From assembly GCA_003506895.1 (NCBI GenBank), contig DNXO01000034.1, positions 26,569 to 90,568 on the forward strand: 64,000 nt of DNA, written 5' to 3'. A program made the position numbers and the translations under genes. Of this stretch, positions 6,493-61,197 are shown in pieces (positions within the stretch are counted from its first letter, which is position 1; each line of letters begins with the position of its first letter). Source of the stretch: Acetobacteraceae bacterium. GTDB taxonomy: Bacteria; Pseudomonadota; Alphaproteobacteria; Acetobacterales; Acetobacteraceae. The notes under the pieces are model-generated. The model was given only the letters and a program-made list of their open reading frames with translations. It did no database searches and was not told where the DNA came from.

Positions 6493-8310
6493 TTAGCCCG
6501 CCCCATGCACCATGACGAACGCGCTGCCCGGAAGTCCGGGTAGGTCTGCCGTATGGCCGTAAGTCACGCTCAACCTTCCATTGTTAAGGTCCGCGCTGCT
6601 GTAACCCGCAAGTACGAAGCTAACCTCGGGCCGCCCCGGTGCGCTGAACACCAGATCGAGCCCCTTCGCCCCCACGGCCCCCTGATCGTCGAAGGCATGC
6701 ATCGTGTAAACCGACGGCTCGATGCCCCAGACCACCGCATCGTCGAACGAGTGGAATGCGACGATCGTCGAGAAAGTCGGTGCCGAGGTAAATCGCGCGT
6801 CCATGAAGAACACATCCTGCCCGCTTCCGCCGGTCATGAATGAAGACGCCGTTCCGCCATCCAGCACATTGCTGCCGCCGGCCGAACTCACATCGATACT
6901 GTTCATGCCCGATCCCGCAACAATGAACGAATTCGGCACCGAGGAAGAGATGTTTAGATTGTCCTGTGTGATCTCGATGAACTGACGCTGCAGGCCGGGG
7001 CACGGTCCTTGGTAGCTATCCCCGGTCGAGTAGCCGTTCGTCCGCGTCGTCATATCATCCAGACCATATCCCGCTGTTGACAGCGATTTCCCGGTAATGG
7101 ATGGCGTCAGCAACACTGTTCCAATGGCGCTTGCTGACGCATGAAGCTCCGGCACCCCGCTAACCATCAGGTCCGCGTACATTGTTCCGTCGCCGTAGAG
7201 AAACAACTCCTCGCTCGTCGCCCCGGTGCGCACGAACATCTCGTCTGACGCGGCCGGGGAGCCAAGCATCACCGAACTCTTCGCATCGAAAACTATCGAA
7301 GCGTGTAGAATCTTGTGAAGAAGCGGTCTCCGGATTACCAGGTTTGCCGAATGAAGTTGAATCGTCTCAGTCGTAGCAAAGTCGCCTACGTCAAACACGC
7401 TCCCGTCCCCGGTGACTGAGATAACGCCACTGCCTATCACCGCACCGAAAGTAAGCGTCGAAGCAGAAACGGTCATCGTCCCGTTGTTTTCCAGCACTCC
7501 CGGCGGCAGACTGCCCGTCCCCAGCAACCCGAAACTGATCGACGATCCCGCCGCCAGGTCGCTGGCGCCATTGACAACCAATGGACCGCTGCCCGCAGCA
7601 ATCTCACTCAGATGCAATGCGCTATCGGTCAGAAAGATGCTTTCCACAGAGATCGAATTCACGAGAAGGGGCGTCGTGATCGACGCGGCGCCCCCATTGA
7701 CCGCGATGATTCTGCCGACCTGCACCGGATCCGCGATCCCTCCATAATCGGGCGGGCCGACGATCTCGAAACTCGCTCCATTTAAGGGATTCACGCTCGT
7801 CCCGCCCGGCCCGTCCGGGCTGGTCCAGGCATCGCTCGGCACAGCCTTGGTCCACCAAAGGCCACTCGTGTTCTCCTGCCAGACCTGCCCTTGGACGATT
7901 GCGAGTTCCCTCACATTTCTTGTCGTCGGATCGACCACGCCCTCCGCGGCCACCTGTCCACCGATAACATTCCAAGAGACCCCCCGGGCATCCTGGACCA
8001 CGCTAGAGTTTCCTCTCGCATCCACCCCCGCGATCAAGTTGTTCGACACCGGCAGCGGCGGAGCAACAAGCGTGCCCTCCGATGGAGACCAAGGATCGGA
8101 GGGACTGGCCTTGGACCACCAAAGCAACGACGAATTCTCTTGCCAGATCAGTCCATCGACATAGGCCAGTTCGATCACGCCGCTGGTGGTCTGGTCCGGC
8201 ACGCTGTTCACATAGACCCGGCCACCGGCAATCCCCCACAGGTTTCCTGAGGCATCCGCGATCACACCGCCCGGGTTGGCCCGGACTACCGTCCCGCTCG
8301 CAGATACCAT
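6493..8310 (-). CDS. Secreted-type protein: two Trp-rich N-terminal repeats, beta-rich middle, conserved C-terminal domain with an RTX-like nonapeptide
   Basis: 605-aa ORF with GAGGGG RBS; repeats WQENSSLLWWSK / WQENTSGLWWTK; C-terminal 171 aa align without gaps to the protein at 59159-61018. Confidence 0.8.
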   Translation of the reverse strand: MVSASGTVVRANPGGVIADASGNLWGIAGGRVYVNSVPDQTTSGVIELAYVDGLIWQENSSLLWWSKASPSDPWSPSEGTLVAPPLPVSNNLIAGVDARGNSSVVQDARGVSWNVIGGQVAAEGVVDPTTRNVRELAIVQGQVWQENTSGLWWTKAVPSDAWTSPDGPGGTSVNPLNGASFEIVGPPDYGGIADPVQVGRIIAVNGGAASITTPLLVNSISVESIFLTDSALHLSEIAAGSGPLVVNGASDLAAGSSISFGLLGTGSLPPGVLENNGTMTVSASTLTFGAVIGSGVISVTGDGSVFDVGDFATTETIQLHSANLVIRRPLLHKILHASIVFDAKSSVMLGSPAASDEMFVRTGATSEELFLYGDGTMYADLMVSGVPELHASASAIGTVLLTPSITGKSLSTAGYGLDDMTTRTNGYSTGDSYQGPCPGLQRQFIEITQDNLNISSSVPNSFIVAGSGMNSIDVSSAGGSNVLDGGTASSFMTGGSGQDVFFMDARFTSAPTFSTIVAFHSFDDAVVWGIEPSVYTMHAFDDQGAVGAKGLDLVFSAPGRPEVSFVLAGYSSADLNNGRLSVTYGHTADLPGLPGSAFVMVHGAG

Positions 8311-8444
8311 AAAGCCCCCTCGACTATGCCGAAGTCAGGCTAACGGCAATTCCCCTCTCTGACTCATCACTTGAAAGCGACGATTCCGGCGACAAAAGGT
8401 CACATTGCCGTATAGGATACCATGTTTGTTGCCCTATCGGCCCG

Positions 8445-25986: not shown

Positions 25987-27516
25987 ATGAGCAACGTGGA
26001 AACGGCGGCGGGCAAGGTGCGTGGGTCCGCGGTGGAGGGCGTCCTGACGTTCAGGACCATCCCTTATGCCGCCTCGACCTCCGGCGCCAACCGGTTCCGG
26101 CCACCCCAACCAGTCGCGGCATGGAACGGCGTGCGGGACTGCACGGAATTTGCCGGTAAGGCACCGCAGGCGGGACTACGCCCACCAACCCGACCGGAGC
26201 TGGAGAATTTCTCCGGGGCCGCCGATGCCTCGCCGGAGACCGAGGACTGCCTGACCGTCAATGTCTGGACGCCGGGGACGAACGGGAAACGTCCTGTGAT
26301 GGTGTGGTTCCATGGCGGGGCCTTTGCCTATGGCAACGCCAACTCCCCCCGGACGCACGGCAGCAGACTGGCAGCGAAGAACGACGTCGTTGTCGTCACG
26401 GTCAACCAGCGGCTGAACATTTTTGGCCATCTAGATGTATCTGCGATCGGCGGCGACGCGCATTCTGGCAATGCTGGCACATTGGACATGGTCGCCGCGC
26501 TGGAATGGGTGCGGGACAATATCGCCATGTTTGGCGGCGACCCCGGGTGCGTCACGATCTTTGGCGAGTCCGGCGGCGGCGCCAAGGTTTCCACGCTGCT
26601 GGCGATGCCGCGCGCAAAAGGGCTGTTTCATCGCGCAATCATTCAAAGCGGCGCGGCGGTTCGGCTGCGGACCAGGGAACGCGCGCTGGCGTTGACCGAA
26701 TGCGTGCTGCGCCACCTGGGGGTCAGCACAGTCGAGCAATTGCGGGCCGTGCCCGTCGCACGGTTATTGGCGGCGGTCGAACCGGCTTCCCAGGCGCTGG
26801 GAGCCTCCCCTTCCCCACTGTTCGACCGGTATCCGTTCGGGCCGGTCGTGGATGGCGACGTGCTGCGGGCCCAGCCGTTCGATCCAGCGGCGTCAGCGGT
26901 GTGCGCCGACGTGCCGGTCATCATCGGGGACATGAAGACCGAGACCGCGAATTTCCTCGCCGTGGTGGACAAGGTCTGGGACCGCACGCTGACGGAACCC
27001 GAGATGCGACAGCGGGTCCAGGCGATTGCCGGCGCCGATACCGCCCGCGTGCTGGATTTGTATGGGCGGTTGTATCCCACCCTGAATCCGGCCGAACGGC
27101 TGATCGCGGTGACAACGGACTGCAATTTCCGCATACGCTCTCTGGTGCTGGCGCAACGCCGAGCGGCACTGAAGCGGGCGCCGGTGTGGATGTATTCGTT
27201 TGAATGGGAAACGCCGGTGCTGGGCGGCAAGCTGATGGCGCCGCACGCGATGGATGTCCCGTTCACCTTCAACACGCTGGACCTGACCAACGCGACCGGC
27301 GGCAGTCCCCAGGCTCAGGCACTGTCCGATGCAATGTCGTCGGTCTGGGCGGCGTTCGCGCGAAACGGGCGGCCAGACCATGCGGCGATCCCGGCCTGGC
27401 CGGCGTATGATGCAACGACGCGGGCCACCCTGGTCCTGGACACCGCGTGCCGGATAGAGAACGATCCACGGGGCGAAGAACGACATCTGTGGCAGGACAT
27501 CACAGGCACGCTATAG
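25987..27516 (+). CDS. Type-B carboxylesterase
   Basis: EDCLTVNVW, HGGAF oxyanion hole, FGESGGG nucleophile, PHAMDVPF His. Confidence 0.93.
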   Translation: MSNVETAAGKVRGSAVEGVLTFRTIPYAASTSGANRFRPPQPVAAWNGVRDCTEFAGKAPQAGLRPPTRPELENFSGAADASPETEDCLTVNVWTPGTNGKRPVMVWFHGGAFAYGNANSPRTHGSRLAAKNDVVVVTVNQRLNIFGHLDVSAIGGDAHSGNAGTLDMVAALEWVRDNIAMFGGDPGCVTIFGESGGGAKVSTLLAMPRAKGLFHRAIIQSGAAVRLRTRERALALTECVLRHLGVSTVEQLRAVPVARLLAAVEPASQALGASPSPLFDRYPFGPVVDGDVLRAQPFDPAASAVCADVPVIIGDMKTETANFLAVVDKVWDRTLTEPEMRQRVQAIAGADTARVLDLYGRLYPTLNPAERLIAVTTDCNFRIRSLVLAQRRAALKRAPVWMYSFEWETPVLGGKLMAPHAMDVPFTFNTLDLTNATGGSPQAQALSDAMSSVWAAFARNGRPDHAAIPAWPAYDATTRATLVLDTACRIENDPRGEERHLWQDITGTL

Positions 27517-59158: not shown

Positions 59159-61018
59159 CTAATTGCCGTGAACGGTGAAATACGTCGCGGCCGGCGCACC
59201 CGGACCGGCGGTGGTGGTTCCGAAAGACCCCGCCAACCGACCACTCGCCAGGTCCGCGACGGTATATCCCGCGATCACCATGTTCACCGTCGGTTTGCCA
59301 GTTGCCGAGAACCCGATCGCCACGCCGGTATGACCCGGAGCACCCGCGTTATCGATCGTGCTAAGGGTGAAGTCCGTCGCATCGACACCGAAGATCGTTG
59401 CGTCGTCGCCAGCATGGAAGTTGTCGACGGTTGAGAAGATGTTCGATGTCGCCCCCCTGGCATCCAGGAAGAACGTGTCGTGGCCCGTTCCGCCGACCAA
59501 GAAGTTCGAACCGCCGCCGCCGTCCAGCACATTGGTGCCGTTCACCCCGCTGACATCGATCGCATCCGTTCCGGACCCGGTATGGATAAACGAATTCGGT
59601 GTCGTGGCGGTAATGTTCAACGAGTCGGTCGTGATATTGATATATTCATGCTGCAGACCAGCCACCGGCCCTGAATACGGCAGGCCCCCGCTGATCCCGG
59701 TCGCCCCCGTGGTGGTATTGACCACGGAGAAGTTCGGTCCTTCGATATTGATCTGCGTCCCACCGGTCAGCGACGTCACCGCGAACGAATCACCGGTGTA
59801 ATCGCCCGCCAGCGCAAGACCGCCCACCGTTTGCCCGCCGTTCTGCAGCAGCAATACATTGCCCGACAGTGTCGCGCTGGTGGCGGTAAACCCGCTTCCC
59901 AGATCGATCTGGTCGCCGGCCTTAGCGTGGATCACGCCTTGAAATGCGCCCGGCGTGTCGAGGACCAGTATGTCGTTGCCGTTCATCAGGATGCTTTGCG
60001 ATGGCCCGACAGCATTCACCTCCAGGATGGAGCCGGTGGGCGACGTCACACCCGTCTTGTGATCCAGATCGAATTGCACCAGCCCGACGCCGGTCAGCGC
60101 GCCGATGATATGCAGATTGCCGCCCAAGGCCATCAGGTCGCCGTTGTTGACCACCGGGGCGTTGATCTCGCCAAAGCCTTGAACCACGCCGCCGTTGATG
60201 TTGATCCCCGCCGGCGCGACAACGCCCGCCTGAAGATTAAGCATCCCGCCGACGTCGATCGTCAGGGTATTCGCGGTAGTGTAGTTCCGTCCGCCCAGGA
60301 TATCGAACGTCCCGCGCGTGCCGATCTCTTTCAGCGTGGTGTCCAAACCGACATAGCCGGACCCGTTCCACTCGCCGATGCTGGTCACCGATCCGTTCAG
60401 GAAGACCTCGGTCCAGCCCTCCGGGATCAACGGCGGCCCCTCGATCGTCTGAATGTTGACGATCAGATTTTGCCTCGGGCCGCCGAAATTGATAACCGCC
60501 CCGGGTCCTTTCGCCTCGAAGATTCCGTCGAACAGGGTATTCCCGGTCATCTCGGCGATCGATTTGGTGTCGATGGTGACGACGCCGGCCAGGGATTGCA
60601 GCCAGTTGGTGACATACAGACCGTTGACACCGGTCAGCAGCACGTTGCCCTCGGCCTGGAGGAAACCGTCGAGCGTTCCCGGGTTATAGATATTGCCGCC
60701 GTTGAGCACGATGTAGGTCTGCAACGAACCGCTTAAGCGTCCGGCCGACCCGGGGTCGAAATTCAGCGTCCCGTCGATCTCCAGTCCCGCGGCGTTGTAG
60801 GGCACCGTGTTCGACCCGAGCAGGTTGTTGGCCGCGTTCATCGACAGCGCGTTGACCGTCTGGACCTCATTCGCGGCGATAATCACCGTGTAGTTCGTGG
60901 CCGTCGGTGCATCGATCGTCACGACGGCCGTTGGATCGTTGGGCACCGCGGCCGGCGTCCAGTTCCCCGCCGTGTTCCAGTCCCCGGTCACCCCGGTCGT
61001 CCACGAATAACTCGCCAT
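59159..61018 (-). CDS. Secreted-type beta-helical protein with the same C-terminal domain as 6493-8310
   Basis: Starts MASYSWTTGVTGDWNTAGNW with GGGGG RBS; no signal peptide; Gly/Asn/Thr-rich; C-terminal domain 82/171 identical to the paralogue. Confidence 0.82.
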   Translation of the reverse strand: MASYSWTTGVTGDWNTAGNWTPAAVPNDPTAVVTIDAPTATNYTVIIAANEVQTVNALSMNAANNLLGSNTVPYNAAGLEIDGTLNFDPGSAGRLSGSLQTYIVLNGGNIYNPGTLDGFLQAEGNVLLTGVNGLYVTNWLQSLAGVVTIDTKSIAEMTGNTLFDGIFEAKGPGAVINFGGPRQNLIVNIQTIEGPPLIPEGWTEVFLNGSVTSIGEWNGSGYVGLDTTLKEIGTRGTFDILGGRNYTTANTLTIDVGGMLNLQAGVVAPAGININGGVVQGFGEINAPVVNNGDLMALGGNLHIIGALTGVGLVQFDLDHKTGVTSPTGSILEVNAVGPSQSILMNGNDILVLDTPGAFQGVIHAKAGDQIDLGSGFTATSATLSGNVLLLQNGGQTVGGLALAGDYTGDSFAVTSLTGGTQINIEGPNFSVVNTTTGATGISGGLPYSGPVAGLQHEYINITTDSLNITATTPNSFIHTGSGTDAIDVSGVNGTNVLDGGGGSNFLVGGTGHDTFFLDARGATSNIFSTVDNFHAGDDATIFGVDATDFTLSTIDNAGAPGHTGVAIGFSATGKPTVNMVIAGYTVADLASGRLAGSFGTTTAGPGAPAATYFTVHGN

Positions 61019-61197
61019 CAGGTCTTCCCCCGCGCTACTTCGACTCGCCGATCCCCATCCGTTCTCGGAATGGGTTACCCAACGAGAGGCCCCGCCCCGC
61101 TCGCGCTGTCCATTCACGTTGCCGTACGCTGAACATGGGCGACCACGCACATTCCCCCTTGGCAACGCCACGCCAATCCGCCTTAGTTGCCGCACGT

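Follow-up and report, generated by a model that had tools for sequence, protein, structure and literature searches.

A conserved C-terminal module on unrelated proteins of uncultured Acetobacteraceae, a probable variant of the RTX tail of type I secretion substrates

Two open reading frames, ORF A and ORF B, in a 64,000-nucleotide stretch of DNA from an Acetobacteraceae bacterium (hereafter the window; positions 26,569 to 90,568 of contig DNXO01000034.1, assembly GCA_003506895.1) encode unrelated proteins that end in the same C-terminal module. We consider it probable that this tail is a lineage-restricted variant of the repeats-in-toxin (RTX) C-terminal domain of type I secretion system (T1SS) substrates, with a role in secretion and folding. 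We base this reading on the terminal position of the module, its diverse passengers, the lack of Sec signals, an acidic composition nearly free of cysteine, short repeats, distant homology to serralysin-type tails, and the presence of HlyB, HlyD and TolC genes in the same genome. Taken together, these features match the classical picture of RTX-type T1SS substrates (PMC3034196, PMC6891781).

Results

ORF A and ORF B end in the same module

The features of the window on which the analysis was built are the following.

6493..8310, minus strand: ORF A, 605 residues; isoelectric point (pI) 4.3, one cysteine, no signal peptide
59159..61018, minus strand: ORF B, 619 residues from the ATG at 61018; the longest frame starts at the GTG at 61195 and has 678 residues
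6496..7080, minus strand: C-terminal module of A, residues 411-605; the profile match spans residues 413-603
59162..59746, minus strand: C-terminal module of B, residues 425-619
6799..6885, minus strand: short RTX-like Gly/Asp repeats in A, residues ~476-504, placed by alignment to B
59462..59548, minus strand: RTX nonapeptide stretch in B, residues 491-519, with GGGGSNFLV and GGTGHDTFF

The original prediction, made from the letters of the window, held that the last 171 residues of A and B align without gaps at 82 identities (48%) and have a series of motifs in common. Both the count and all of the quoted motifs were reproduced exactly. In comparison, shuffled sequences gave 13.1 ± 3.4 identities with a maximum of 27 (20,000 shuffles), and BLASTP of full A against full B gave E = 1e-52. 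When the N-terminal ~410 residues of the two proteins were compared alone, no similarity was detected (best E = 0.14), in agreement with the claim that these parts are unrelated. The further claim that neither protein has a Sec signal also held, with neither N-terminus being hydrophobic and positively charged. The proposed boundary of the common domain had to be moved. In an alignment of 129 C-termini, the conserved unit comprised ~190-195 residues, starting with F-x-V-x-D-T-T-T-G followed by Y-x-G-P-V-x-G-L. Hence, the domain itself is real, and its start lies ~20 residues further upstream than first drawn.

ORF A consists of two N-terminal tandem repeats of ~85 residues, a beta-rich middle part and the C-terminal module, whose repeat stretch contains one canonical nonapeptide, GGSGQDVFF. 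For ORF B, the ATG at 61018 is the likely start, since 22 homologues have lengths of 619-653 residues and begin with MAxYSWT. The product of B is acidic (pI 4.07), free of cysteine and beta-solenoid-like, with the N-terminus MASYSWTTGVTGDWNTAGNW and the C-terminal module at its end.

Ten carriers of the module in the source genome

The source assembly comprises 5.58 Mb on 173 contigs and is 92% complete. Its contigs are denoted here by C and a number, the window being part of C34. A count of paralogues had been proposed as a check of the original prediction, and tblastn of the whole assembly revealed ten full copies of the domain on nine contigs, each of them closing an open frame. Their passengers were as follows.

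B and its paralogue on C74: beta-solenoid-like passenger
A and the carriers on C8 and C15: passengers with a common N-terminal 'WQEN...WWSK' repeat
C73: NF038122-family metalloprotease, 120 bits against a cut-off of 80
C97: GDSL lipase, the Pfam match beginning at residue 8
C68: GH32N-like passenger
C154: Big_13 Ig-like passenger
C100: 340-residue protein, passenger without a match

Two further proteins, a metalloprotease on C20 and a 144-residue protein on C32, gave weak matches to the domain. In this set of 12 proteins the pI was 4.05-4.36, and eight had no cysteine.

The N-terminal repeats of A lie at 7810-8001 and 8074-8265 on the minus strand (residues 16-79 and 104-167) and are 52% identical over 64 residues, with the motif 'WQEN...LWWSK...W'. 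Two copies of this repeat occur in the C8 carrier and one in the C15 carrier. The repeat had no match in Pfam, NCBIfam or the PDB sequences and constitutes an uncharacterised passenger domain.

The C20 protein (C20:14445-16343) is a 632-residue metalloprotease without a signal peptide whose conventional Peptidase_M10_C tail ends in '...GNILHA'. The source genome thus carries two kinds of T1SS-type tail. In the C32 protein (C32:31471-31905), a 'GINNxGxxVG...HGF' repeat region passes straight into a tail of which only the final ~45 residues are present. If secreted, this protein would be a natural minimal-signal construct. We did not retain it as such, since its architecture occurs once, with no second example in a collection of 5.8 billion proteins; it is probably a one-off product of recombination, fusion or deletion.

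Position, composition and spread of the domain

A word-indexed search returned at least 640 proteins with the domain. A search of 1.84 billion representatives with a profile of ~190 positions yielded 875 clusters (defined at 50% identity) at E ≤ 1e-30 and 2,879 at E ≤ 1e-10. The passengers found elsewhere included matrixin, GDSL lipase, lipase_3, VWA, Calx-beta and Ig-like domains. Most carriers were named 'hypothetical protein' in their source records, and a few 'Ca2+-binding RTX toxin-like protein'. Such unrelated passengers of exoenzyme or adhesin type, both in and beyond the source genome, bear out the earlier idea of a modular domain swapped among passengers.

In 116 of 119 close homologues, 0-3 residues separated the end of the domain from the C-terminus of the protein. 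In the remaining three it lay 11-12 residues from the end or matched only in part. Among the best 150 of the 875 clusters, every full-length match reached the C-terminus or stopped a few residues short of it, and the other entries were two giant RTX proteins matched via repeat stretches (36-50) only. The sole internal copy seen was an incomplete one, in a protein that has a C-terminal copy further downstream. The terminus itself followed the consensus G-(L/V)-P-G-S-x-Y-(M/L)-x-(I/V)-H-(A/G)-(N/T); in 108 of 116 proteins the histidine is followed by exactly two residues. By a crude rule based on hydrophobicity and charge, a Sec-like N-terminus was found in 0 of 121 proteins (12 source-genome proteins and 109 full-length homologues). 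The expectation that the domain would be neither internal nor attached to signal-peptide proteins was therefore borne out. Across the 121 proteins, pI values were 4.05-4.5 and the median number of cysteines was 0; the median pI of the homologues was 4.05. These values are close to those of known T1SS cargo, as RTX proteases have pI values of 4.0-4.6 and cysteine-free RTX lipases have been noted (PMC3034196).

In a class-level sample, the domain was present in 3 of 401 genomes. In a family-level sample, 66 of 401 genomes had it, often in at least eight copies; they belong to at least 28 of the 143 genera sampled. Within the source genus, 12-14 of 31 genomes carried the domain, with 1-15 copies each, and 17 were without it. 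Ecology, repeated loss and transfer are possible causes of this patchiness.

These counts also bear on the simplest alternative, namely that the likeness between A and B reflects a recent duplication or gene conversion among paralogues and has no targeting role. For A as well as for B, the source genome contains a closer full-length paralogue (on C8 and C74), as such an origin would suggest. However, the copies in the source genome are only 39-66% identical to one another, and the same tail is found on hundreds of unrelated passengers across those genera and the 875 clusters. We regard this explanation as hardly credible.

Relation to serralysin-type tails and other known families

Next, we compared the module with known domain families. 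Among 25 members scanned, Pfam and NCBIfam covered only ~30 of 195 residues, by a borderline match to HemolysinCabind, and left all other residues unmatched, in keeping with the earlier statement that the domain could not be assigned to a named family. HemolysinCabind matched 23 of the 25 members (best E = 3.9e-6); in B its score was 17-19 bits, below the cut-off of 23. Full-length A and B gave only sub-threshold matches to RTX_toxin and Zn_serralysin in NCBIfam, and PF08548 (Peptidase_M10_C) gave no match at E ≤ 1 in the 25 members. Matches to PDB sequences were confined to the repeat stretch of ~45 residues and came from the AlgE4 R-module and CyaA (2agm, E = 0.008; 7usl, E = 0.01).

A more distant relation was detected by hhalign, which aligned columns 11-126 with the C-terminus of the Peptidase_M10_C protease on C20 at 93% probability. 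The aligned region takes in the DTTTG segment, the repeats and the 'NFHxGD' segment, the last of these aligned with 'iitNFHsaaDqIDL' of the C20 tail, a stretch that we take to be the equivalent of the serralysin motif 'DFxxGxDKIDL'. The alignment stops before the last ~70 residues, which match no known family. Since hhalign links the first two-thirds of the module to a serralysin-type tail, we read the module as a diverged branch of the RTX C-terminal domain that has its own cap.

The likeness to serralysin-type tails (PF08548; serralysin, AprA, PrtC) extends to their setting. Both are C-terminal on acidic exoenzymes without signal peptides, and both have Gly/Asp nonapeptide turns followed by a conserved segment ('xxNFHxGDxxT' here, 'iitNFHsaaDqIDL' in the C20 tail). 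In contrast to those tails, the module has far fewer repeats, with ~3-4 turns, and it alone has the N-terminal cap F-x-V-x-D-T-T-T-G...Y-x-G-P-V-x-G-L. The last ~70 residues with the terminal Y-(M/L)-x-(I/V)-H-x-x are without counterpart there, and template modelling (TM) scores are 0.2-0.35. The typical serralysin C-terminus is an acidic residue with hydrophobic residues behind it.

The AlgE R-modules and RTX block V of CyaA are likewise compact units of ~150-170 residues, with a short beta-roll and capping strands. They gave the top PDB sequence matches and Foldseek TM scores of up to 0.37 (2ml1, 2ml3, 5cvw). Only the ~45-residue repeats align, however, and the R-modules are tandem and internal, whereas the module described here is single and terminal. 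In concept, the module also corresponds to the T1SS target domains of NCBIfam (TIGR03661, the VC_A0849 subclass, is presumably such a C-terminal target domain), which are family-specific C-terminal domains after RTX-like repeats, but no model of this kind matched full-length A or B.

Structure prediction, suggested earlier as a check, gave a confident all-beta model. AlphaFold2 with a 25-sequence alignment modelled the module of B at a predicted local distance difference test score (pLDDT) of 95.2 and a predicted TM score (pTM) of 0.90, as an all-beta fold with one short helix. Full-length B was modelled at a pLDDT of 79.9, with the passenger and the C-terminal two-thirds of the tail confident. 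A Foldseek search of the PDB with full-length B returned nothing significant, with a faint beta-solenoid likeness to Ag43, EspC and pertactin (TM ≤ 0.2). We rejected ORF B as a type V autotransporter, as it has no signal-like N-terminus and no autotransporter barrel in Pfam.

The extent of the conserved unit and the shape of its model raise the question of a function beyond export. The module might serve mainly for surface retention or matrix binding (lipopolysaccharide, exopolysaccharide or S-layer), with the signal residing in the last few dozen residues, or with T1SS export followed by retention. The whole stretch of 190 residues is conserved among paralogues (45-66% identity), which is far beyond the needs of a bare T1SS signal; the last ~70 residues form what looks in the model like a separate beta unit with no known relative, and several passengers are adhesin-like or beta-solenoid-like. 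RTX S-layer proteins show that T1SS cargo may stay attached to the surface (PMC3034196), and the Rhizobium Rap proteins are described as T1SS cargo attached to surface or matrix. However, the same tail is carried by enzymes of soluble type (GDSL lipase, metalloproteases, a GH32-like protein), and it matches no known anchoring or carbohydrate-binding family. We consider retention as the main function unlikely; it is compatible with, rather than opposed to, T1SS export.

A candidate type I secretion system in the source genome

The export apparatus presupposed by the original prediction is present as a complete HlyB/HlyD/TolC set, which lies outside the carrier loci.

C158:30173-32479: HlyB-type ATP-binding cassette (ABC) exporter; TIGR01846 positions 2-693 of 694, 525 bits
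C158:32487-33851: HlyD-family adaptor, directly after the ABC gene; TIGR01843, 347 bits against a cut-off of 209
C165:114405-115637: TolC; TIGR01844, 283 bits against a cut-off of 225

An orthologue of the adaptor occurs in 371 of the 401 family genomes, and the C158 system is therefore a core system of the family. In the 92%-complete assembly, one HlyD-type adaptor was detected against ten carriers. Because only this one adaptor was detectable, the C158 system is the sole candidate in the assembled sequence. A comparable arrangement is known for PrsDE of Rhizobium leguminosarum, whose 12 exported and unlinked substrates differ widely in size (PMC2275737). As here, with ten carriers and one adaptor, a single transporter pair of an alphaproteobacterium serves many unlinked and varied substrates. 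In contrast, the PrsDE substrates do not have one conserved 190-residue tail, and their export was demonstrated by mutants and proteomics, whereas that of the present carriers is predicted.

Four other high-scoring ABC exporters were found in the genome, on C113, C108, C74 and C20. The C74 exporter was rejected as a transporter of the carriers, being a ChvA/NdvA-type glucan exporter by NCBIfam. Those on C113, C108 and C20 were rejected as PrtD-type T1SS exporters, as none has an adjacent HlyD adaptor; by length and architecture they look CydDC-like (fused), Atm1-like and MsbA-like. Downstream of the adaptor, the C158 locus (C158:30173-39706) continues with a 599-residue Sel1-repeat protein, a 967-residue glycosyltransferase with tetratricopeptide repeat, GT2 and GT1 parts, and a ChW-like protein.

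Linkage, co-occurrence and the case against type I export

Several observations weigh against the assignment of the tail to T1SS cargo. Linkage was examined at 40 loci (±10 kb) from 15 genomes and at the ten source-genome loci (±9 kb), by tblastn with the ABC and adaptor proteins and by all-against-all clustering of the neighbouring reading frames. No HlyD-type adaptor gene was found near the carriers (0 of 50 loci within 9-10 kb), and no neighbour gene recurred across the 50 loci; the only recurring 'neighbours' were out-of-frame shadow reading frames of the domain and generic ABC ATPase domains. Where complete genomes were checked, distances of tens to hundreds of kb separated the listed domain genes from the adaptor genes of the T1SS. 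The co-occurrence of domain and T1SS, a further check of the original prediction, gave no significant association, with an adaptor orthologue in 63 of 66 family genomes with the domain and in 308 of 335 without it (Fisher p = 0.45). This comparison is uninformative, since nearly all members of the family have the HlyD/HlyB system. Within the source genus, all 31 genomes had an adaptor above the cut-off and only 12-14 had the domain, and the number of adaptors per genome failed to separate carriers from non-carriers.

Canonical nonapeptides number only one or two per protein, so that the repeats fit the RTX pattern weakly, and HemolysinCabind scores of the source-genome paralogues (17-26 bits) straddle the cut-off. 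In the model of full-length B, residues 429-484 have a pLDDT below 50, although they are confident in the domain-only model. A Foldseek search of the PDB with the domain gave no significant match (best TM 0.3-0.37). Its weak neighbours were mostly beta-rolls of T1SS substrates (serralysin, PrtC, alkaline protease AprA, MIS38 lipase, CyaA block V, AlgE6 R-modules and an Aeromonas RTX-like domain), together with a fungal beta-helix adhesin. As for the machinery, the ABC exporter on C158 scored below the curated cut-off of TIGR01846 (525 against 726 bits), and Peptidase_C39 did not match its N-terminal region. That region is an extension of ~150 residues without cysteine, and for both reasons it is more like the inactive C39-like domain seen in RTX exporters than like a bacteriocin peptidase. 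Finally, all of the carriers found come from metagenome-assembled genomes (MAGs; Acetobacteraceae bacterium, Rhodopila sp. and uncultured Alphaproteobacteria), which is probably why the domain has neither a curated model nor an experiment behind it. A single literature search on RTX-type secretion in Acetobacteraceae yielded no paper.

Part of this evidence would also fit a module that is a common functional domain, for example for substrate binding or oligomerisation, on proteins that leave the cytoplasm by a route other than T1SS, with an incidental likeness to RTX. The missing link to a T1SS locus, the marginal RTX matches and the patchy occurrence within one genus in which T1SS is universal are all in line with this. 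Against it stand the 121 proteins, in 0 of which a Sec-like or Tat-like N-terminus was found, and the failure to match an autotransporter barrel, a sorting signal or a type IX secretion tail; the sorting domain Por_Secre_tail (PF18962) was rejected after matching 1 of 25 members at E = 0.17. Moreover, the fixed distance from motif to end, the serralysin-type homology and the acidic, cysteine-free composition are T1SS hallmarks. We therefore consider another route out of the cytoplasm quite improbable.

Proposed export route and significance

With the tail read as a variant of the RTX C-terminal domain, we infer export, Ca2+ binding and the choice of transporter as follows. The carrier proteins would be synthesised without a Sec signal. 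In the inner membrane, the HlyB-type ABC transporter and the HlyD adaptor (C158:30173-33851) would recognise their uncleaved C-terminus, with TolC (C165:114405-115637) as the outer-membrane partner. The chain would be threaded out unfolded, the C-terminus leading. Outside the cell, the 3-4 Gly/Asp turns would bind Ca2+ and nucleate the folding of the compact beta module, and this Ca2+-driven folding may prevent back-sliding and aid the folding of the passenger. One unlinked transporter would thus serve about ten passengers, among them A and B, covering a protease, a lipase, and glycosidase-like, Ig-like and adhesin-like beta-solenoid proteins.

What is new here is a family-level variant; the kind of element is well known, the mechanism is not new, and the picture of type I secretion stays unchanged. 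The use of the tail lies in offering a simple sequence mark by which the likely secreted proteins can be listed for a large group of uncultured Acetobacteraceae of acidic soil and peat (Rhodopila-like). The proteins marked in this way are proteases, lipases, glycosidase-like enzymes and adhesin-like beta-solenoids, mostly annotated as 'hypothetical'. The description also fills a gap in the domain databases, with ~160 of 190 residues unannotated, and it provides a compact, confidently modelled candidate for a secretion and folding tag.

A more far-reaching version is conceivable but unlikely. The tail might be a highly conserved and self-contained 'address plus fold' cassette that defines an entire accessory secretome of uncultured soil Acetobacteraceae, with the last ~70 residues adding a second function such as docking, surface retention or partner recognition. 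In this reading, carrier genomes would contain 4-15 or more cargo proteins and sister species none; a second function of the last ~70 residues would explain this multi-copy-or-absent pattern despite the universal T1SS.

Antisense reading frames and an upstream motif

Long plus-strand open reading frames lie antisense to the domain coding sequence, at 59358-59801 in B and at 6553-6843 / 6722-6985 in A. Comparable out-of-frame reading frames over the domain recur in 16-34 of 50 loci. We rejected them as genes and read them as shadows of the conserved GC-rich coding sequence.

A 13-nucleotide motif was found upstream of both A and B.

8400..8412, minus strand: TACGGCAATGTGA, ~90-100 nucleotides upstream of the ATG of A
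61114..61126, minus strand: TACGGCAACGTGA, ~96-108 nucleotides upstream of the ATG of B

The 5.58-Mb assembly contains no exact match to TACGGCAAYGTGA other than these two, with ~0.3 expected by chance according to our own estimate. The motif was absent upstream of the other eight carriers in the source genome. In another MAG, the motif recurs (L063:1197-1209) upstream of an orthologue of B with 92% identity. It may be a shared promoter or operator of A and B.

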